Source: Spizellomyces punctatus DAOM BR117 (lineage: Eukaryota). Taken from it: a stretch of DNA of 64,000 nt. A program made the translations under genes and the position numbers. The notes under the pieces are model-generated. The model made no database searches and had not been told where the DNA came from. It saw only the letters and a program-made list of their open reading frames with translations. Shown here piece after piece: positions 6,513 to 25,070 of this stretch (within the stretch, counting starts at the first letter, position 1; each line of letters starts with the position of its first letter). The DNA lies in NCBI GenBank assembly GCA_000182565.2, contig KQ257454.1, one strand, 5' to 3'.

Positions 6513-7745
6513 CTAGTCATTGTAACCTGAGACCTTTAATGAGCCAACTTGCTTTCTCAAGCCCTTGGGATGGCCCGCCTTTTCGTCCAGATCCTCCTGC
6601 CTACTCTTTCCGCCCTTGAAAACTGGCCGCTCACCGTGTGGAGTGACGCGAATGGCATGCCGCTTTTCTGGCCAAAAGTCGTAGGTAGCTGAGTGTATCG
6701 TGGATCTGTTGTCCCAGATTGCCACGGCATCCTTTGACCACTTCCAGCGGACAGTCACATCCACGGATTGCGAGATCAGCTTGAAGAGGAACGAAAGAAT
6801 AGCCTCAGACTCGGCTTTAGGAACTCCAACGATCGAGCGAGTGAATCCTGGATTAACAAAGACAGACTTCCATCCCGTAACGGGGTGCGTCCGGACTAGC
6901 GGATGGACAGTAGTGATAGGATCACGGCGAACCGTTGTTCCAGAGGCCTGGGCGCCCTGTGCTTGCTCGTGAGCTGAGTGAATGGCGCTCAATCCCTCGA
7001 GATACTGCTGGAAGGCGGGTGAAAGCTGGTCGTAGACTGCATATCCCGACACCCAGAGAGTGTCACCGCCACCACCAGGAGGGGTGGTGATTACCCTAAA
7101 TGAGGTATAAGCGGGAGGTTGAAGCTCGTATGTGACATCCGAATGCCAAAGTTCTTGCTGTGTAAACTGGTTGTTTCGTGGAGGTCGCTTTCCGTCAGCG
7201 TAAACAACGTGAATTTCCTCAAGACCTGCTTTCTTCGGGAGACCGGTGGTAGCGTGCTTATGAAGCTTGCCCCAGTATCGACCAAGATCCAGCTGTTTCT
7301 CGACAGTAAAGTCCGATTGGTCACGAACAAAGACCACACCGCGGTGGGCTACCAACCGAGCCAGATCGTCCTTCTGCTCGTTGGTGAGATCCGCTAGACG
7401 CACTCCCTTGAGTTCAGTTCCAATGGTAGGAAGTACGTTCTCAGCTGTAACGCTATTGCTAAGAAGCCGCGAGTACTTTTCATCCCCGAACAGCCCGCGA
7501 TCGGGGTCGACCTCAAACTCAGCTAAAGGTTCCCACTTAACGTCGGGAAAGCTGGGAAGGAGGTAGTCATACTCGTAGCTAGTTTCCTCAGTTGTATCAA
7601 AAGCTTCGGCGTAAGTAGGTGCAGGAATCGCATATGAAGGGATATCAGTTCCAGTTTGGCTTTTAGCTGTTGCTTTGATATCGCTGATTAAGGTAGCTTG
7701 GTCCGGAAGAGCCGCCGTTTCTGCGAGTGCGTGTGGAGGGGCCAT
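6513..7745 (-). CDS. Alpha-ketoglutarate-dependent sulfonate/taurine dioxygenase (TauD/Jlp1-like), intronless
   Basis: WHSDVTYE (HxD), GGDTLW, HPLVRTHPVTG, WDNRSTIH facial-triad motifs; 410-aa ORF. Confidence 0.93.
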   Translation of the reverse strand: MAPPHALAETAALPDQATLISDIKATAKSQTGTDIPSYAIPAPTYAEAFDTTEETSYEYDYLLPSFPDVKWEPLAEFEVDPDRGLFGDEKYSRLLSNSVTAENVLPTIGTELKGVRLADLTNEQKDDLARLVAHRGVVFVRDQSDFTVEKQLDLGRYWGKLHKHATTGLPKKAGLEEIHVVYADGKRPPRNNQFTQQELWHSDVTYELQPPAYTSFRVITTPPGGGGDTLWVSGYAVYDQLSPAFQQYLEGLSAIHSAHEQAQGAQASGTTVRRDPITTVHPLVRTHPVTGWKSVFVNPGFTRSIVGVPKAESEAILSFLFKLISQSVDVTVRWKWSKDAVAIWDNRSTIHSATYDFWPEKRHAIRVTPHGERPVFKGGKSRQEDLDEKAGHPKGLRKQVGSLKVSGYND

Positions 7746-11861: not shown

Positions 11862-13873
11862 ATGGCAGCAGACAATTCAGGAGCAGAGCTCGAGGCTGAG
11901 AGAACAAACGAACAGCAAGAGACAATAGAAAAGAAAAGCAATGCTGCTCGTCGAAAGTCCAAGTCGAAAGGGATAGCACCAGAGGAGCTGATAACGAATG
12001 AGAAGAAAGAGATCCCCAATACAAGCTCGACAGATAAAAAGCAGGCTGCTGCATCAAAAAAGTATGATCGTGCAGGAATAACCACCATTTCCTTGAAAGT
12101 GAGTAGAGTGAAGGAAGGAATGGGTGGCATCTTAAGCATGATTTTGACAAGCTACTTTTGCAGGGCGTGGGGGATAAGAAGCTGAAAGGGAAGCTCAAGA
12201 GGTCGGAGAAAGCGGCGCGCGAGGCAGCGTACAAAGCTGCTCAAGCTGAAGTACTGCTTCCAGCTGAGGCTGGATTTTTGGAAGCAGAGGGTCTGGAGAA
12301 AACATGGAAGTTCACACAGAATCAGCTCAAGGACAACTTGGATGCAAATACCAGTAAGAACGTTTTTGACCTCAAGCTGAAAGATTTTGGCCCGTACACG
12401 ATGGACTACACTCGGAATGGACGACATATGCTGATTGGGGGACGGAAAGGGCATATCGCTACATTTGACTGGAAGACGGGAAAGCTCGGCTGCGAACTTC
12501 ATGTCAAAGAAACCATCCGTGATGTGAAATGGCTACATAATGAAACGATGTTTGCTGTGGCACAGAAAAAGTACACGTATATCTACGACAACACTGGTTT
12601 GGAAATTCACTGCTTGAGACAACATACTGAGATAAATAAGCTGGAATTCCTACCGTACCATTTCCTCCTGGTTACCGTGGGCAACGCCGGATGGCTAAAG
12701 TATCAAGATACATCTACCGGCAAACTCGTTGCAGAGCTTCGTACAAAGTTGGGACGGTGCGATACAATGTCCCAAAACCCGTATAATGCCGTCGTACATC
12801 TCGGTCACTCTAACGGGACGGTTACATTGTGGGCCCCCACGGTGTCGACCCCCTTAGTGAAAATGCTATGTCACAAAGGGCCTGTGCAGGGAATTGCGCT
12901 TGATCGAGGAGGAAACTATATGGCCACTACTGGATTAGATGGCCAAATGAAGCTTTGGGATATCCGCACGTATAAATGTCTTCAATCGTACTACACTCGA
13001 ACTCCTGCTGCCACATTGTCGATATCACAACAGGGACTCTTGGCGGTTGGATACGGACCGAACATTAGCGTATGTGATTTACTTAGTTGCATTGTGCGTC
13101 GTGCTTATCATCATTCTTATCACACTGGGTTCCCTTCGTTATGCAGATTTGGAAAAATGCTTTCAAAACAAAGCAGAAGGAACCATATATGACTCACTTA
13201 AGCGCCGGCAATATTGTACAAGATATTAATTTCTGTCCTTACGAGGATGTCCTCGGATTTGGTCACAGCAGTGGCATATCTAGCATTGTTGTTCCCGGAT
13301 CTGGTGAACCGAACTTTGATACTATGGAAGCCAATCCCTTCCAGACGAAAAAGCAGAGACAAGAAACCGAAGTTCATAACCTACTCGATAAGGTTCAGCC
13401 TGAGATGATTGCCCTAAACCCAGAGTTTATCGGTGCTGTTGATCGGGCACCGGCGGAAGTCATTGCGGAGGAGAGGAGGCTGGAATGGGAGGTAGGAAAG
13501 ACCTTCATGTAGTTCGACGCAGCAATACTACTGGACAGTTGTTCACCGGTGCTGTTTGCAGGCAAATCACCCCAACCAAAAGTTTGTCCCCCAGCACCGT
13601 GCTCGAGGAAAGTCCTCCTCTATGCGACGATACTTGCGCAAACAATCGAATGTCCTGGATGCAAAGAAGGTATATTTTGGATTTCTATCGCTGTTCTCTT
13701 CTCTTGTTATTGATATTTCGCATTTGAATTCGTTGCATCAGGTCGAGATGCAAGAGCGTCTCGAAAAGGAAAGAAGAGAGCGTGAGAAGGAGCGCAAGCG
13801 TGCGCGTGGGGAGGGAGAGCCAGAAATACCTCGGACGGCTCTAGATAGATTCACAAAGAAGATAAAAGTCTGA
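11862..13873 (+). CDS. UTP7: SSU processome WD40 protein Utp7/WDR46, spliced
   Basis: FGPYTMDYTRNGRHMLIGGRKGH, LEFLPYHFLL, BING4CT motif PGSGEPNFDTMEANPFQTKKQRQETEV. Confidence 0.93.
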
Positions 13874-14446
13874 AGGTGTATTGGTCATTATTTAATTTTC
13901 ATTAGCGAGTTTTTAAAGTTCAAGGCTGAGTTGCATATATGCATTCAACAGCACAAGGCTTGTTACCCAAATATCTGCCTACAAACACACTGGCAAGCGA
14001 CTGACGTAAGCATCGATCACCCACGTAATCCATTTGTGCACAGTGGACTCTTTGGTTCATCGTCATGGTCAGTGGCAAGTTTTCTATGCAAGTGTCCAAA
14101 TGAAGAGTATTTTGGCATGGCAAAGCTTAACAAGCTCCATAAGCGTCGCAGAGCCCTGCTCTTGGCGTTGGTGGGGTTCGACACGGCGCATCGCAAAGCC
14201 CTGGAGTGGCAAGCTCAATGACTCATCATGGCTCCTGGGGCTTCTTGGCGAGTGTTAAAAGACACAGCTTGTGGTCCGAATAAGGAAAGATAGTGGGATT
14301 TTGCATGGAGTGTGATGGGATATGTGACTATCGTAGCATATGCTTCAATTGCGCCCAATGAGCGCTTATCCATGAGCGCCCTATAAAAGGTGTCCTTGAG
14401 TTTGAGCTCCGTACCATTGGCAAAAACGCTTTCACACAAAGTCCAG

Positions 14447-17400
14447 ATGCATCACTTTTGTCCATCAATCCTCTTTTCTGGTCTCATACTAGGCGGCTTT
14501 CTACCTCTGTTGGCCGCCGAATATCGTTCTTATGATGGGGTTGGCAATAACCCTGGCGGTCTCGCTGGCCTTTCACAGCTCCGGACACCGTTTAGCGGCG
14601 CATGGTACGATATTTCAGATCCCATCAATTATACCAACCGCATTATGGTATTGGAGACAACGGATCCGGTCCTTTCTGCACGTAATGTGTCCAATCAGAT
14701 GGCCTCTGCTATGGTCACTGGTGGACCACGTAAAAATAGGAGGATGATCAATGATTTGCATACGATGTGGGGAGCCATGATTGGGCTGGATTATGTGTGA
14801 GTTTTGAAGTACATGCTTTGGTATTGAATCACGAACCTGGTCTTATAGATGCTGCAATTGGGTCATGTTCAGGAAGACGATGATGAACACCACCAACGTC
14901 ACCATGTCGATCCCGAGGTAAAGTGTTCTTGTTGTGAGCGATTATAGTAGCTGGAACTCCAGAGCTGACACCAGTGACGCATCAGGTGCGATGGCTACTT
15001 TGACCCCGACTGCAGTGAGTACGAGTAGTGACCCATGTCACTACAAAATGAAATCCTCACCGCCCAAAATACTACCCGGTTGCTAATCCAACTTTTAGCC
15101 GGTATCAAGAATTTCACATTTCAACGGGCATTCACAAATGAAAGTGCCAATCCCGAAAGAACCGCACTCAATCTCGTCACTCCCTTCCTAGATGCCGGCG
15201 TCATTTACGGCACGAATGAAACCCGAGCGAGACTTTTACGAACCTTCATCAATGGCAAAATCGTTCTAGACTCTGATGAATTACCCCCACGAATTTCCGA
15301 AATGCCTGCACTGGACATGGTGGGTCCACCTCCTCCATCTCTCGCCACCCAGCTGGGAGATGCAAGTACCCGTGGTGCTCCACGAAGCGAAATGAGAGTG
15401 GGGGGCGATGCGATTTCAAATGTTAACACATTCGGGTTCGTGATTGTTACGTTATTTATGAGGGAACATAATCGATTGTGCGATCAATTTGCGAGCGAGC
15501 ATATAGGGTGGGATGACGAGACCTTGTATCAAGAGGCCCGGAGATGGTAAGTGTTCTGGTATTTGGCATAACTACCTGTATCTTGTAGCTACGAGATTTT
15601 CGAGAAAATAATCATGCTGTTCAAAATTAAGGGTCATTGCTTTCATGCAACGCATCACTTACTACGAATATTTGCCGGCTCTTACGTCTCGCGTACTACC
15701 TACATACACTGGCTTCAACGCTAGCACGAATCCGCAAGTGACCATCTTCAATTCCGCATGCATTTTACGATACGGACATAGCGAAATGAATGATGCAATC
15801 GAACGGCTGGATGAGCGATACGTTCCTCACCCACGGGGTCCGATCTTGGTTCGGGATGCCCCTTTTGATCCCGATAAGGTGCTGGATGCTGGAATTGAAC
15901 CTGTCTTGAGAGGACTTGTGTCTCAAGTGCAGAATCAAGTGGATTGGGAAGTCACTGGCGATTTACGGAACTGGATGTTTGGGCACCCAGCGGGAATGCC
16001 GGGTGTTGATATGATTGCGCTGGATATTCAAAGGGTTAGTTAAAAGAGACCCGATGATTTAATTCTATATTCACATTTCTGGTTACTTTACAGAACCGCG
16101 ATTTTGGCATCCCACCTTACAATGATGTGCGAGAGTCCTATGGCTTGTCACGCGCGAAATCCTTCCAAGAGATTTCGTCCAATCCTCGAATTGCGGCAAC
16201 GTTGGCAAACATGTACGGGTCGGTCGATAGAGTTGAGGCCTGTATCGGTAAGTCACTGTTGATAAACAAACCTTCAATAATCAGCAGAGTTGCATGTTCA
16301 GCAATATCTGCAGGTGCGCTGGCAGAGGATGAATGGCCCGGCTGCAATATGGGTCAGCTGCTTCATGAAGGCCTTCGGGAACAGCTGACTAGAATACGGT
16401 AGGGCATCTTAGTTCATGTTTAGAGTTACTTTCGTAGGTTACTAAACGATACTGTTAGCAACGGCGACAAATTCTGGTACCAAAATGAGCAGTTCGCACC
16501 CGAGGACCTCAAGATCATCGAGTCAACATTGTTGAGGGACATCATCGCCCGGAATACATTGTGGAAAGATCCGCCAATAAACGTGTTTTTCTCTCTGGGG
16601 GCACAGATGAGCCGAAGAAATCTAGTCGAGGCTGAGCATGCGCTAGCAAAAAATGAAGAGTTCCTTGAAGACTTTCCAAAAATTTCTGGAAAAGAGCAGG
16701 CAATGCATTTAGGACCGGCGTTCAAAATGTACTGGAGTGTCAACGTGAGGAAGGGAGAGGCAGAGTTTGTTGTTGTTGGACGTAATGAGGTCCGTGCTTT
16801 TGCTTTGACGGTTCATTGTTTGTTTTGTTTATACTGAAAAAGTCAAGTAGGGTTGGATTGGCGTAGGATTTGAACCTGATGATTCAGGTATGACCAACGC
16901 AGACATGGTCCTCGGCTACGCACTCGAAAACGGTACTACCTATATTCGTGGCGCCCGCTCGGTGGCAAACGAGCCCCCAATTCCCTATCCAACTGATAAC
17001 CCTGGAATCACGAACGCAAGCGCGGCACGCATCCATGGATTCACAGTTTTGAAATTCACTAGACCATTAGCTGCCCGTCCTCCATTCAACAAAACCTTGC
17101 CAATTGCAAGACCTGCGAAAGTGGTATATGCAATGAATCCAATGTATGTCGAACCCTTATATCACGGGCCTGAAAGAGGATTGGCAAATGTGGACTTGGT
17201 GCCTGCTTATGGTAAGAAGATGGACTTTAGATCATGTATCAGATCGCTCAACTTTCTTGATACAGTGAACTACCGTCCTGTAACCTTCAATAGCGCTATC
17301 GGGATTGTTTTCACCGTCATTGGGACAATTCTGCTCTCGATAACACTAGCAACCATATACGTGGTCATTACTCGTCGAATGGACCCTATCGTCCGCAGAT

Positions 17401-18519
17401 CAAGTCCACCCTTTCTTCTCATCATCCTGGTCGGCGTGGCTTTGGGGTACGTGTGCATATTCGTCTGGACGATCCCAAGGAGTGATGCCGCGTGCAAAGC
17501 AAGGATGTGGTTGGTAGGATTGGCTTATATCTTGATGTTTGGGTGAGTTCCACCGCCCCGTTGCCGATTGTTCACTGATTCTAACCATCAGGTGGTGGAT
17601 ACAGCTTTGCAACTGTAAAAAACTACCGTATATACTTGGTGTTTCGGGGAGCAAGTGGATCCAATTTGAGTACTCGCGCCGTTCTTTTGGGAAGTATCCC
17701 ATTGCTGGCCATTGAAGTGGTAAGCGAACATCGTCGTGCAAGGCATTTGTATTCCCAATCATTAACAAACATTCATTGGGAGATCCTCCTTACGATATGG
17801 ACATTTGCCGACGCACCATACCTTCGTGTAACCAGCGATATGGTAGATTGTTGGTATGGTCGTGTGATGCCAGCAATTGTGCTGGCATACAATCTGCTTA
17901 TTTTATTGTGCGGCCTATACATTGCCGTGTGCGTCCGTCATGCATATACCGACTATCGGGATTCATTTGCGATTGCATTTTCGGTAAGTATCTGCTAATA
18001 ACTGACACCACAAGTGATCTCAACAAGTATTAACTTTTGGGATAGACGTACAATTTTGTGATGTGCATTATCATTCTTGTACCCGTATCGGTCTCAGGTC
18101 GCACCGCTGTCGAGCGATATGTTCTCGAATGCATAGCAATCCTCTTGGTAACAACAGGGGTCCTAGCGTTTTTCTTTGGTGGCAAGTTATGGACAATCTA
18201 TGTCATCAATCGTGGTAGCATCCGTCTTTCTTCGTCATTCGTCCCAGAACACGAGTACCGAGGATCTCGACATTGGGCTTGGTCGTTCGGGAGCGCTTGG
18301 AGGCATACCCTAAGGGTGCGGAACCCGGAGGAACAGAGAGTGGAGGTGACAACACCTGCGAATCAAGAACCAAAACCTGGAGAGGGGGAGGCTGTTGCCT
18401 CGAACAGTGTCATCTCGTCCCCAACGATCGGCCAAGCATTGATGGAGAGGCTTTTCATCGTTAACCGGTCAACAGAAACCCAATCCAAACCGACCACAGA
18501 AACAGAAGGCGTCATATGA
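14447..18519 (+). CDS. Signal peptide - animal-type heme peroxidase - DOMON - class C GPCR 7TM fusion (13 exons, ~1090 aa)
   Basis: Exons 14447-14796, 14873-14917, 14986-15014, 15099-15546, 15632-16034, 16094-16247, 16314-16398, 16459-16789, 16851-17211, 17266-17542, 17605-17719, 17783-17983, 18046-18519 join in frame (3273 nt). Peroxidase motifs YRSYDGVGNN, TPFLDAGVIYG, FMREHNRLCD, LYQEARRW, LRYGHS, DIQRNRD, GDKFWY. DOMON motif GWIGVGF...GMTNADMV...LYHG. 7TM motifs IVRRSSPPF, CKARMW, KNYRIY. Confidence 0.85.
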
Positions 18520-18652
18520 TGATGAATATTGGTAGTATTTTCGTCCTTTGATAAGGAGCTGTAGGGTGCAAGGCAACAACATGGCCTATTCGCATGTAAA
18601 TTAATAGCTTAAACCTTGGGAATGGAAAAAGATTTTGCTGCAAAACCCTGCT

Positions 18653-19363
18653 TCAAAACAGCTGTCTATACACACTAGCAACAACAGTACCAGACAACAT
18701 ACACAACAATATGGAGGTGCCAAAGTACTCAGTGTGCAGGCGCGCAAAAGTTCTAATGTCCTTGCCGTAGTTGATGTTTTCGGTAGGCTTTGATTCAACA
18801 GGTAAATAATTCAGGGGAGGTTGGCCGTTTGCTGATAACAAGCTTTCAAGCTCTGACCGCGCAACTTGCAATTTGGATTTTATGGTTTCATTAGAACCTA
18901 CCATATGCTTTCTTTAGCCATTTTGCTGCTCCGGGAGTTCCGACCAAACTTTTTGCAGAGGCTGTGAAGGATGAAAATTACTAGTGGCGAGTCGTACGAA
19001 AGTGATATCTTGACAGCTGCGGATGGTGAAAATGGCGAGAAACAACTTGTCCTCCAAGGATGTACATTAAACACCATGCAAAGCACACACTCTCGGATCC
19101 CCGTATCAACTGGTTGAACAAGAAAGATTAGTTAGTCCTTTAGAACTTTTTTTTTTTGTTTCACTATCAGCGATTTATTGTCAAGGGTGGAATTCGTCCC
19201 TTTCTCCATTTCTGATTATCCTCGGTCTGATTTGACGGTTCTCAGCTTTCTTTGGACCGTACACCTTAGGCACAGAGGAGTACGCACTGCACCTACCAAA
19301 ACCTTTTGGGAAAAATCCAACGATGGCCTGTAAGTAATCGTTTTGTTCATGTACTCGCTTCAT
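18653..19363 (-). CDS. Possible small multi-exon hypothetical protein with a C-terminal hydrophobic segment
   Basis: Several GT...AG pairs allow an in-frame ~115-aa product ending FGTSILLCMLSGTVVASVYRQLF; no family recognised and the model is uncertain. Confidence 0.3.
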
Positions 19364-19401: not shown

Positions 19402-21082
19402 ATGACCTCATCTGGCCGAATGATGAAGCGGCTTCTTCGCCAATTAAACAGAATACCCATGGTAAAAGAAGCAAATGTGAAAACTAGTTTTTTGCTCCTT
19501 GCTAATATGGATAGAAAATCATGTTAGCTTGCATGGATTTTCATCATGAGTGGATTGGGGATCATGTTTGGTCTTGTTGCTCCTCAGTTTTCAAAAGAGT
19601 ACCTAGCACTCCTCTCCACTCATATCTTCTTGCCCATGGTGAAATCGCTCATTGTTCCCCTCATATTCTCGTAAGTTGCCTTCTTTTAGGCTTTTTAAAA
19701 AGGGCTGTTGGGCTTAATGTTACGTTTGCGAGCAAGGCTGCTGGTGGTTGGAATTGCTGGACATGGAGACGACCTCGCACGGGTAGGAAAACTCGGAGTA
19801 AAATCCATGGCGTACTTTCTAGGATTGACTTTTATTGCCAGTGAGTTTCACAGTTTTCATTGGAGGGCCATACTATTATGATTTTCTTTTGCTTATTCCT
19901 TTGTGGTCTCTAGTTTTCATTGGTCTCGGGTTTGGGAATGCGATTAAACCAGGAAACGGAGTGACATTGGGTGAAGTCAAAAACGCCAATGCCACAGCTG
20001 CAATCAAAAGCCAAAAAATCTCCCTAGCATACGAACTCAACCAAATCATTCCCGAATCGTTTTTCGCTGCGGCTTCCGCCAACAAGTCGTTGCAGATTAC
20101 CTTTTGTGCAATCATGTTTGCTTGCGCTTGTATGCTGGTCCCGAATAAGGAGCATAAACGAGTCATGGTGGATTTTTTTGATGGTTTGGCGAACGTCATG
20201 TTGTCTGTTACGAATTTAGTGATGAAGTTTACACCTCTGGTGAGTATCTAATTTGAAAAAAACGAATCTAACGTTTCTTTAACCTTTATATTCGTTTCAG
20301 GCCATCGGCGGAGCCTTGGCGAAAACAATTGCCACAAACGGAATCGGCGTTCTGTCTACTCTTGGAAAACTGATCGGAACCGTTTACCTCGGCCTCCTCA
20401 CATTTGTTTTCGTTATCCTCCTTCCCATCGCCCTTTGGGCCAAAGTCCCACTAGTGCCCTTTATGCGACAGGTTTCTCATCCCCTCATCATTGCCTTTTC
20501 GACTGCCTCATCCGATGCTGCCTTGGCAAAGGCAATGGAGAACATGATAGAGCTGGGCGTTCCAAGGGAAATTGTTTCATTTGTTATTCCTGTAGGGTAC
20601 TCGTTCAATCTTGATGGTACAACTTTGTACCTAGGGACTGCAGTCCTGTTCGCCGCGCAGGTTGCCAATGTAAACTGGAGTGTTGGCGAGCAGATCTTGC
20701 GAATGCTCTTGGTCTTGCTAATGAGCAAAGGGATTGCTGGTGTGCCGAGGGCATCGTTGGTAGTCTTGGCCATGGCATGCGACAATTGGAACTTGCCAAC
20801 CGAGATTGTTGGTTTGGTACTTGGAGTGGATGAAATCATGGATATGGCCAGAACGGCTGTCAATTTGCGTATGTGCTCTCTTATTGGCGCAGATATTCTT
20901 GAGATCGTTGGCTAATCTTTGAATGCTTTCGCGGAAAAGTCGGAAATTGCCTAGCTTGCGTCGTTATTGCCCGCTGGGAGGGCGTCTTCAAACTATACAG
21001 GCAATCGACCGACGACAGCGACATTGAGGACTCCCCTGATGCGCTACATGTGAAGCTAGACGTGGATAAGACTGTTGCATGA
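19402..21082 (+). CDS. Dicarboxylate/amino acid:cation symporter (DAACS/SDF, GltP-like), spliced
   Basis: MVKSLIVPLIF, IAFSTASSDAAL (HP1), GYSFNLDGT (TM7), SKGIAGVPRAS (HP2), DMARTAVNLVGNCLA. Confidence 0.92.
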
Positions 21083-23014: not shown

Positions 23015-25070
23015 ATGGCAACAATCGCACAGGTACATGCAATTTATGGCCATTGTTTATTCTTTTGGTATGGTCTGCTACGATGTGTACATAGTGTAAA
23101 CATTGCCATTACGTGGTGGGACTTTTCTATTAGTTGCAATGTTTCCATACTTACCATCTCTCTGCATACTACGCTACATTATTTCCATTGAGAAGGCACG
23201 AGGAGGCCGACATGGGGGCTTTCGATCGGATTTTCTGATTGCCAACCGTCGACGGGAGGAAGAGACCCGAACCCGCATGCGCGAGCAAATCCAATACTAT
23301 GAAAAAACAGCTCTACAGTCGCATTTTGAAGAGTCGACAAATGCCGCTATCATGCGAAACAGGATCATGCGCCGTTTTGAGGAGCTAAAGTCTCAAGAGA
23401 ATAGCAAACTTGAGCAACGGAGGGAAAGGTATGTAGGTCGGGTTCTTTTACGGCTCGCGCTCTAGGTGCCGACTAGATATACCATTTTGTTAGATTGCGA
23501 CAGTTACTGGCCCACGATGACGAACGGTACCAAAAGGAACTGGCATCAACAGTCGTGACTGGAGAATCTCGGGTCGAAGCCATGCGGGCAAGAATGAATG
23601 AATTGAAAGCAAAGCGAGAAAAGGAGCGTCAGAAAATCGTGGAGGAGAAGCTCTTGCAACGATGGAGGTGGGAGCATAGTTTTAATGCAACCATCCGAAC
23701 TGAAATTGATGAAACATGTGTGTCTGTTTGGTAGAAACGAATGTGACGAGCTTCGTTCTATAGAGTCACATCTGTTGGAAAAAGAAGTTGCCAGCGCCAG
23801 AGCGGAACAGTTGATCGAAGTCCAAGAAAAGAGAGCATTGGCAAAGCAGGAGAAAAAATACTACGATGATCTGTGGGAACAAGATCGTCTCAAAAAGATT
23901 GAACGAGAAGAAGCAGATCGGTTACGAAGAAGAGCCATGAATGAAGCCATGACAGCTACCTTGCAGGAACAGCTACGACTTCTCAAAGAGCACGCGCAGG
24001 AGGAACAACGATTAAAGCAGGAAGAGGGAGTTTTGATGGTAAAGTGACCGCTCATACGACCTCCACATATTGACATGCGCTAAATTTACAAACTCGCACC
24101 ATTCTAGCGACAAGAACACGAGCTTCGCCTGCTAGAAGAAGAACGAGCCCGACTCCGCAAAATCCAAGACCAACGCCAAGTCCGCCTCGAACTCGATGCG
24201 TTCAACAAGCTCAAAGTCCAACAACGTCAGCGTGAAGTCCAAGATGCCCTCGACTTGGATATCAAGATTGTCAATGCCTTTTTCCGCATGGATGAGCAGG
24301 AGAAAGAGAGCCGTAATAGACGAAAGGAAGAGATGAGAAAGGAAATGCTGCTTTATATGGAACATTTGAGGGAACAACAACGGATTGAGAAGGAGAGAGA
24401 ACGAGAGGTTGACAGGATGTATGCTGAGGAAGCTGAAAAGGTTACTCTTTGCTCACAAAACCTGATCTGCCTACCTTGAGTACTGACAATCTTTGTTCTC
24501 ACAGTTATGGCAAGCCCGAGCAGAAAAATGGAGTAAAGAACAAGGTGCACGCGACCGGCTCATGCAAGAGGTTCTATCCGGTCGCCAAGAGCAACTACAA
24601 AACGCCCGTACGTTCCCCACCATACTTGCCCCTTGAATGACTATCATAATATTAAATTTTCCCACTTGTGTACAGTCAACCACAATCGTGTCCGTCAGGA
24701 AGAAGCCCGAATGGAAAAACATCTTCTTGAACAGCAAATCGCTCAAGCGCGTGCCCAAGAAGAGGCAGAGCGGGAGCGACATGCACGTAATGCACAAGAA
24801 TATAAAGGGGCATTGTTACAGCAAATGACAGTTGCGCAAGAGAGGAAGAAGGTGGAGAAGGAACAAGCTGCACGGGAGAGTGCGGCTGAAAAGGAAGCTG
24901 AAGAGTTATACAAGGACTTGCTTCGACAAGAGACGGATCGCGCGCATCAATTGCCAAGGTTTGGACAGAGTAAATGTGAAAATCACAACGTTTTTTGCTG
25001 GAGGCTTACCCGTTTTTTACTTGTAGAGTCCGAGCCTTTAGAGCAACGAACCGTGATGCTACTCGATTGA
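23015..25070 (+). CDS. CFAP53: Axonemal coiled-coil microtubule inner protein, CFAP53/CCDC11-like, spliced
   Basis: TPH-type coiled coil; RMNELKAKREKERQKIVEEKLLQRWR|NECDELR, YYDDLWEQDRLKK. Confidence 0.78.

Follow-up and report, generated by a model that had tools for sequence, protein, structure and literature searches.

A gene in Spizellomyces punctatus DAOM BR117 raises the question of what a peroxidase domain deprived of its distal catalytic residues would do at the outer face of a seven-transmembrane (7TM) receptor. The gene lies in a 64,000-nucleotide stretch of contig KQ257454.1, the whole of which is referred to here as the window. An earlier note on this DNA had described the domain as a pseudo-enzyme that keeps the proximal heme ligand and would suit a gas or ligand sensor. 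The explanation that fits best, and that is held with modest confidence, is a class C G protein-coupled receptor (GPCR) with a two-heme ectodomain that would have retired from peroxidase chemistry and would report a ligand or redox state to the 7TM domain. Across the receptor family, the aligned sequences indicate a targeted loss of distal residues with preservation of the heme anchor, not decay.

An annotated protein from the chytrid Spizellomyces sp. 'palustris', P0001, has 87.9% identity to the 1098-residue gene model and shares its three domains and its three peroxidase motifs. The Pfam families An_peroxidase, DOMON and 7tm_3 were found in that order on the pieces of the window gene and also on P0001. 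The features of the gene are as follows, with residues of canonical peroxidases in MPO numbering and set before their equivalents in the window protein.

14447..18519, plus strand: whole gene, 13 exons, 1098 residues; signal peptide, peroxidase-fold domain, DOMON domain, class C 7TM domain and cytoplasmic tail
14447..14518, plus strand: probable signal peptide (residues 1-24), with a hydrophobic stretch at residues 4-22
14519..16600, plus strand: animal-heme-peroxidase-fold domain (residues 25-560), presumably extracellular; PF03098 on P0001 and AlphaFold fold match
14768..14791, plus strand: distal helix WGAMIGLD; Gln91 replaced by Ala110, Asp94 by Gly113 and His95 by Leu114; calcium ligand Asp96 present as Asp115
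15167..15199, plus strand: distal calcium-binding loop; Thr and Asp equivalents present, as in 11 of 11 covered receptors, and Ser replaced by Gly
15401..15424, plus strand: GGDAISNV; distal Arg239 replaced by Ile255 and heme-ester Glu242 by Val258
15765..15785, plus strand: LRYGHSE; Arg333 retained as Arg345 and proximal His336 as His348
16023..16034, plus strand: remainder of the proximal triad; Asn421 replaced by Asp430, Arg424 retained as Arg433
16691..17207, plus strand: DOMON domain (residues 591-742), with putative heme ligands Met637 (16890) and His728 (17163); PF03351, E 8.4e-12
17283..18192, plus strand: class C GPCR seven-helix domain (residues 750-990); PF00003, E 7.1e-42, seven hydrophobic segments
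18205..18519, plus strand: cytoplasmic tail and stop codon, from the gene model; low AlphaFold confidence in the tail
18328..18655, plus strand: 3' end of the transcript, poly(A) site at about 18645; RNA run X6, depth 58-110 in two bins

Inspection of P0001 with PF03098 gave a score of 344 bits (cut-off 25; E 1.4e-102), which places the N-terminal domain in the peroxidase-cyclooxygenase fold. The AlphaFold model of P0001 matched PDB entry 8S6C with Z 46.5 and a root mean square deviation (rmsd) of 1.9 over 490 residues; other fold matches were DdPoxA (6ERC, Z 44.4), MPO (Z 40.3) and DUOX1 (Z 40.1), with α-dioxygenase (α-DOX) and cyclooxygenase (COX) at Z 30-32. Both AlphaFold models that were used are of P0001, whose ∼133-175 stretch is spliced differently from the window model; the first has a poor 7TM domain, and the second has a good 7TM domain and a poor peroxidase N terminus. 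The ESM Atlas pointed from the whole protein to a peroxidase-DOMON cluster (0.79) and from the peroxidase domain alone to generic peroxidase clusters. Eight N-glycosylation sequons are present in the domain.

Residues were placed in register by alignment to a profile of 45 canonical peroxidase domains and given MPO numbers, of which 333, 424 and those of the calcium loop are presumed. Positions 91, 94, 95, 96, 239, 242, 336 and 421 are as given in the accessible part of PMC3533774. The canonical distal motif WGQFxDHD reads WGAMIGLD at 14768-14791, as the earlier note had proposed, with Gln91, Asp94 and His95 becoming Ala, Gly and Leu by profile. Loss of the distal Arg through the change of GDxRxN to GGDAISN was confirmed at 15401 (Arg239 = Ile255), and the proximal motif LRYGHSE at 15765-15785 is indeed intact, with Arg345 and His348 retained. 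The profile alignment thus puts Leu114 and Ile255, neither His nor Arg, at the positions of His95 and Arg239. The loss of Glu242, the change of Asn421 to Asp and a second putative heme site in the DOMON domain go beyond what had been noted before. That the distal His-Arg pair is needed for peroxidase chemistry, also claimed earlier, agrees with the accessible text of PMC3533774, which names the pair for heterolytic cleavage of H2O2 and gives Asp94 and Glu242 as the heme-ester acids and His336-Asn421 as the proximal pair. According to PMC5787809, DdPoxA has the same distal and proximal triads.

Because the distal helix aligns weakly by itself, its register is supported by the profile together with the W-G...D anchors and the predicted fold. 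A phmmer comparison with 8S6C placed the helix in the same register, although that stretch alone contributed −1.0 bit, and the helix was left unaligned in a BLASTP comparison of exon 1 with a fish MPO. Asp115 is invariant in 13 of 13 aligned rows, and the blocks containing helix 103-116 had predicted local distance difference test (pLDDT) values of 96 and 92 in the AlphaFold model of P0001 that was matched to 8S6C. Mis-splicing is an unlikely cause of the distal loss, since the GTGAGT donor at 14797 lies beyond the end of the motif, 14740-14800 offers no earlier GT but a poor donor at 14767 (leaving aside the GTGT run at 14795-14798), and the canonical distal motif is absent from every frame of the gene region.

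The peroxidase core (residues 153-560) is 94% identical to that of the Spizellomyces orthologue, compared with 87% for the tail, which argues that the domain is not decaying; the corresponding values for the DOMON and 7TM domains are 95 and 96%. Outside one loop, conservation of the peroxidase domain against the orthologue is 90-94%. The replacement of Asn421 by Asp also occurs in 17 of 236 stand-alone peroxidase rows, and the window protein retains His348 and Arg433. Over six pocket positions, its mean hydropathy is +1.73, the highest in the receptor table, in which 10 of the 11 other receptors have negative values.

Several specific activities were considered for the domain. An active peroxidase of the MPO/LPO type is very unlikely from the sequence, with the distal His, Arg and Gln and both heme-ester acids gone. 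In COX and α-dioxygenase, the radical-forming Tyr stands three residues before the proximal His; the window protein has Arg345 where this catalytic Tyr would be expected, and readings as COX, α-dioxygenase or linoleate dioxygenase were rejected. His105 was provisionally rejected as a substitute distal base, being nine residues ahead of the His95 position.

To place these changes in a wider context, related proteins were collected with a HMMER scan of 1.84 billion representatives, of which the best 150 of 10,176 matches were listed. A Pfam scan of 36 proteins (mostly long matches, 35 of them from the best 150 of 10,176) found all three domains in 11, P0001 included, and the truncated P0203 was added by means of a custom 7TM profile. 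Word-seeded searches returned no three-domain receptor besides P0001, the others coming from the full HMMER scan. The non-redundant set used below consists of 12 receptors, the window protein and 11 others (mean identity 35%), from which the duplicates P0001, P0260 and P0261 were left out. Two of the receptors come from Vexillifera abyssalis and Rhizamoeba saxonica, which we take to be amoebae; the design is thus shared with distant relatives of the chytrid.

Among the non-redundant receptors, the distal and proximal sides of the heme site behave differently. His95 and Asp94 are each found in 0 of 11 covered receptors, Glu242 in 1 of 12 and Gln91 in 3 of 11; His336, Arg424 and Asn or Asp at position 421 are present in 12 of 12, and the calcium-site Asp in 11 of 11. 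For stand-alone peroxidases, the distal His was observed in 187 of 191 covered rows (45 of 236 uncovered; near-duplicates included). Of 70 columns conserved at ≥90% in the stand-alone peroxidases, 52 are retained by the window protein, and Asp94 and His95 are the only ones that no receptor retains. The earlier suggestion that heme could still be bound is supported by this pattern: with the proximal His, the downstream Arg and an Asn or Asp partner in every non-redundant receptor, heme binding is plausibly retained.

The distal pocket itself is less uniform. Of the 12 receptors, 10 retain Arg239 and 8 carry Lys at the Glu242 position, and Met stands at the Gln91 position in 6 of the 11 covered there. 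Accordingly, the hydrophobic pocket described in the earlier note applies to this gene and not to the family, the apolar form being the window lineage's own variant given that most receptors keep the distal Arg. Five-coordinate heme, proposed in the same note, would suit the window protein, which has Ala at the Gln91 position, but is not assured family-wide because of the Met found there in about half of the covered receptors; this Met may fill the sixth heme site in some of them. Such variation across the receptors implies no single ligand, and members of the family may bind different ligands. Ahead of the peroxidase domain, five receptors (P0108, P0117, P0127, P0154 and P0229) carry an additional N-terminal region of ∼290-430 residues that matches no Pfam family; the regions of four of the five can be aligned with one another, and P0229 is labelled 'plastocyanin' by one source.

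Phylogenetic trees were unrooted and, like the approximately unbiased (AU) tests, were calculated with LG+G4 and no mixture model. In the tree of the peroxidase domain (51 rows), the chytrid receptor lay outside a clade of the other receptors with support of 96/99. It was also outside in the tree of peroxidase and DOMON domains together (26 rows; Shimodaira-Hasegawa-like approximate likelihood ratio test, 99), and in both trees it grouped loosely with cyclase fusions. Its position in the 7TM tree was not resolved, and P0134 was outside too. A single receptor clade was not rejected by the AU tests (p 0.41 with 35 rows, after 16 had been dropped, and p 0.14), so an independent fusion of the chytrid receptor is only a possibility.

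The domain that follows the peroxidase fold is a putative heme-binding DOMON of the cytochrome type, as judged by fold and by its axial Met/His pair. All 15 receptor rows carry both residues, as do 29 of the 32 DOMON domains in other peroxidase fusions; the three that remain are incomplete. The modelled DOMON matched the dopamine β-hydroxylase (DBH) DOMON with Z 14.8 and the cytochrome domains of cellobiose dehydrogenase (CDH) and pyranose dehydrogenase with Z 12.3-12.8; phmmer of the DOMON piece against the PDB gave 0 matches. Met637 and His728 were matched by family conservation and motif rather than by residue-level superposition on CDH. According to PMC10691727, the cytochrome domain of CDH binds its heme b through this Met/His pair, which sugar-binding DOMONs and DBH lack.

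The 7TM domain is that of a class C GPCR by both profile and fold. PF00003 scored 144 bits on P0001 (cut-off 33.5), and the 7TM model matched mGlu2 with Z 27.9 and GABA-B with Z 27.5, compared with ≤17.8 for class A receptors. No GPCR appeared among the 50 fold-match rows of the first P0001 model, in which the 7TM domain was poorly modelled. By Pfam, P0001 contains An_peroxidase, DOMON and 7tm_3 only, and no Venus-flytrap domain, which is typical of class C though not universal, was found on it. The genome has Gα genes at five loci and 31 exon-level 7tm_3 matches elsewhere, at many other loci.

The peroxidase-DOMON module is not confined to receptors. It precedes adenylate/guanylate cyclase domains in P0103 and P0129 from Sulcionema and in P0109, and a kinase in P0110, joined in each case through a membrane segment. 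It also stands ahead of b561-cytochrome b5-FAD/NAD-binding chains, in which b561 is weak and not called in every member, with named sources among glomeromycete fungi, Paraphysoderma and Cymbomonas. Both distal and proximal His were present in 12 of 19 covered members of the DOMON-bearing group without a 7TM domain, and the proximal His only in the remaining 7; across other DOMON-bearing proteins, the proximal His was found in 26 of 27 covered. Distal His and Arg are retained in P0103 and P0129, that is, in two of the three cyclase fusions.

Two genes of the chain type occur in the same genome. The peroxidase-DOMON-b561-b5-FAD/NAD gene L015:1753-7420 (G000:C12) has a canonical distal helix, and L013:1996-7150 (G000:C13) has the same chain type and appears to be without the distal His, its motif being read across a predicted splice site. 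Both resemble a convergent DUOX-like enzyme in which a complete transmembrane electron chain leads to a heme in a peroxidase fold, and no description of this chain family was met in the literature searched. The simplest history, drawn from unrooted trees, would have the module start out at the outer end of an electron wire across the membrane and be reused as an input domain only later. A fourth An_peroxidase gene of the genome, L014 (G000:C8:855812-857580, minus strand), showed no DOMON or 7TM domain, and its motifs are presumably α-dioxygenase-like. Two tandem peroxidase domains were observed in P0099-P0102, the P0099 cluster being named Saprospiraceae; the second domain of P0100 seemingly lacks the distal His and Arg, with the proximal His present.

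The proteins of the chain type bear directly on whether the window domain is still an enzyme. Its description as a pseudo-enzyme stands insofar as a peroxidase of the MPO/LPO type is very unlikely with the His-Arg pair and both ester acids gone, but it does not dispose of an enzyme with changed chemistry (an oxidase, a nitric oxide dioxygenase or a hydroperoxide-converting heme, fed by the DOMON) that makes or destroys a ligand sensed by the 7TM domain. Versions without the distal His and with the proximal His do end complete NAD(P)H-FAD-b5-b561-DOMON chains (P0008, P0043, P0049 and P0213), as L013 would by motif reading, and a terminal catalytic heme is the simplest reading of such chains; the Asp beside the proximal His is, moreover, common to most redox-chain versions (21 of 29). 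The receptor, however, has no b561 or other transmembrane electron path, carries Arg instead of the radical-forming Tyr three residues before the proximal His, and has a fold nearer to 8S6C and DdPoxA (Z 44-46) than to α-DOX or COX (Z 30-32), and a changed enzyme is considered unlikely, though the likeliest of the rivals. Heme itself could instead be the ligand, with an apo-domain that captures free heme and a receptor that is switched by loading. Loss of both ester-forming acids (Asp94 in 0 of 11 and Glu242 in 1 of 12) while the proximal ligand stays would make any heme non-covalent and exchangeable, as this idea needs, but the heme site is deeply buried in the peroxidase fold and the putative six-coordinate heme of the DOMON is left unexplained. 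Ester loss would in any case follow from lost peroxidase chemistry, because the bonds form autocatalytically with H2O2 (PMC5787809, accessible part), and heme as the ligand is regarded as improbable.

A peroxidase fold without any heme would leave only the DOMON heme functional and could serve for scaffolding, for dimerisation or for binding a ligand other than heme, as has been proposed for the peroxidase-homology domain of DUOX. In DUOX, the fold persists without catalytic residues (P0088 lacks both distal and proximal His; PMC4654585, accessible text), and DUOX1 matches the model as well as MPO does (Z 40). All 12 receptors and 26 of 27 covered other DOMON proteins, however, retain the proximal His that DUOX lacks, together with its hydrogen-bond partner, and this alternative is likewise given a low probability. 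Far less probable still is that the distal loss is an artefact of splicing or register, or a sign of a decaying pseudo-enzyme. The introns are without RNA joints, the distal helix aligns weakly alone and splicing of the annotated orthologue differs shortly after the helix; against this, the frame is open over 13 exons, the motifs of the orthologue are identical, the domain is 90-94% conserved outside one loop and ten other covered receptors lose the same column.

A class C receptor with a two-heme ectodomain, the preferred explanation, could work as follows. A two-heme module would have been taken over from a transmembrane redox enzyme. In the peroxidase fold, His348 would ligate a heme b that is not covalently bound and whose distal face is open and apolar. 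A second heme, six-coordinate through Met and His, would sit in the DOMON and exchange electrons both with the first and with redox partners outside. When the open heme binds a ligand or changes its oxidation state, the module would move against the 7TM domain and alter the G protein output. The occurrence of the module on cyclases and a kinase, as expected of a portable sensor, favours this explanation, as does its occurrence on b561-b5-FAD/NAD chains with the DOMON as electron link; transcription and polyadenylation of the 3' end of the gene and the five Gα loci were also counted in its favour. The most likely input, proposed only tentatively, would be binding of O2 or NO to a ferrous heme that the DOMON keeps reduced. 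The ambient level of oxidant or reductant, and a bulkier apolar iron ligand fitting an Ala/Gly-widened pocket, are each somewhat less likely than the gases. What the earlier note observed is thus confirmed and gains strength from conservation across the family, and its interpretation as a gas or ligand sensor is partly supported; Ala and Gly would enlarge the pocket and suit a bulkier ligand as well as a gas.

Several observations weigh against the heme-sensor explanation. Loss of the distal His does not mark signalling receptors alone, being found in 7 of the 19 covered DOMON proteins without a 7TM domain, most of which are of the reductase type, which favours a changed catalytic role in those proteins. 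Nor does a signalling output need a disarmed peroxidase, because two of the three cyclase fusions keep His and Arg. Other columns drift in the receptors as well (two Leu columns are each retained by a single receptor of the 12, and one Pro by 2 of 12), the pocket varies across the family at the Arg239, Glu242 and Gln91 positions, and the proximal His, Arg and Asn could be partly kept for reasons of fold. An extracellular ferrous heme without a transmembrane electron supply, finally, would tend to autoxidise.

Heme gas sensors such as soluble guanylate cyclase (H-NOX), FixL and EcDOS (heme-PAS) and the globin-coupled sensors likewise combine a His-ligated heme, an open or displaceable sixth site and a signalling output, and differ from the window protein in fold, cytoplasmic location and outputs. 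To our knowledge, no heme gas sensor is a GPCR or uses the peroxidase-cyclooxygenase fold. The domain resembles MPO/LPO-type peroxidases, especially DdPoxA (6ERC) and the cyanobacterial 8S6C, in fold (Z 44-46, rmsd ∼2), in the proximal His and Arg, in the distal calcium site and in sequence (∼30-34% identity). It differs in its apolar residues in place of the distal Gln, His and Arg and both ester acids, in having Asp at position 421, and in being fused to DOMON and 7TM domains rather than secreted alone. Like the peroxidase-homology domain of DUOX (Z 40), it is a peroxidase fold, presumably extracellular, without distal His on a membrane protein; in contrast, DUOX is without the proximal His (P0088; PMC4654585, accessible text) and tied to a NOX core, whereas the window protein keeps its proximal site. 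No EF-hands or NOX core were found on P0001 by Pfam, so that it is not a DUOX. With CYBDOM proteins and the cytochrome domain of CDH, it shares a DOMON fold with a Met/His pair just outside the membrane, but its membrane partner is a GPCR 7TM domain without b561 hemes, and a peroxidase fold lies upstream.

Class C receptors typically bind small solutes through an ectodomain of the flytrap type. Those described in the accessible text of Krishnan 2012 (PMC3251606) and de Mendoza 2014 (PMC3971589), including fungal ones, similarly place 7tm_3 beneath a large ectodomain, which there is of the Venus-flytrap/periplasmic-binding, Cache, pentaxin, TIG, kelch or a similar type. The accessible text of PMC3251606 contains neither 'peroxidase' nor 'DOMON', and the motifs of the gene are absent from it apart from a short match in a different protein; among the 7tm_3 architectures listed in the corresponding part of PMC3971589, there is no peroxidase-DOMON type. 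No peroxidase-DOMON-7TM fusion was found in the available portions of PMC10445921, PMC3591440 and PMC8027222. The text of PMC12716839, as far as accessible, does not mention the architecture, its glutamate-receptor domain figure (3C) and supplementary file 12 being outside this scope and possibly bearing on novelty. More generally, the architecture was not met in the open full-text literature searched, represented by listings and the beginnings of abstracts. Automatic annotation lists all three domains for two environmental proteins, and the architecture is thus in databases though apparently undiscussed.

The window protein probably works like a heme-based sensor and would be categorically new if heme-dependent signalling were shown. 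A bolder proposal, conceivable but with the balance somewhat against it, is that the window protein would be the first GPCR to sense through a heme cofactor, and that it represents an undescribed portable module of microbial eukaryotes, a peroxidase fold with a cytochrome-DOMON. This module would once have been the outer end of an NAD(P)H-to-peroxide wire, would have lost its distal His possibly more than once, and would have moved to GPCRs, cyclases and kinases as a reporter of O2/NO or redox state outside the cell. A heme-based GPCR would constitute a new eukaryotic form of surface sensing of gases or redox state and a new use of the MPO/LPO fold, and chytrid zoospores or germlings could be guided by it to gradients of oxygen or oxidant. 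The family is in effect a natural experiment, with the module present with and without the distal His on four outputs. Besides the receptor, the genome holds a canonical redox-chain paralogue and a His-less one, which makes it directly testable how a peroxidase turned into a sensor or a terminal oxidoreductase.

As regards the gene model, removal of 12 GT-AG introns gave a single reading frame of 1098 residues with no internal stops, and the hydropathy profile of the product shows one N-terminal hydrophobic stretch and seven membrane segments. The RNA contig runs X1, X2 and X4 match the DNA ungapped. No intron joints were found in RNA run X6, of which ∼6% was read, mostly at the 3' end, with gene-body depth mostly 0-1.5. 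Five X6 reads carry an A12 loose end behind 18645, where the genome reads non-A. Intron 1 has two possible in-frame acceptors, making its splice point uncertain, and predicted intron 11 (17720-17782) is in frame and stop-free with an unusual GAG acceptor, so that its boundary or retention is uncertain; the motifs are affected by neither. A 29-nucleotide mini-exon at 14986-15014 restores a Cys-Asp...Asp-Pro-Asp-Cys loop common to homologues. P0001 is spliced differently in this region (14849-15098), and its model there is probably mis-predicted.

Neighbouring genes of the window, for which no link to the receptor gene was seen, encode a Mur-ligase-family protein (1211-2635), a TauD dioxygenase (6513-7745), a WD40 protein (12158-13873), a sodium:dicarboxylate symporter (19835-20915) and a trichohyalin-plectin-homology protein (23103-24047). 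In the gap upstream of the receptor gene (13900-14391), RNA reads were observed in the minus direction at a depth of 10-15 over 13900-14227 and in the plus direction at a depth of 6 over 14228-14391.

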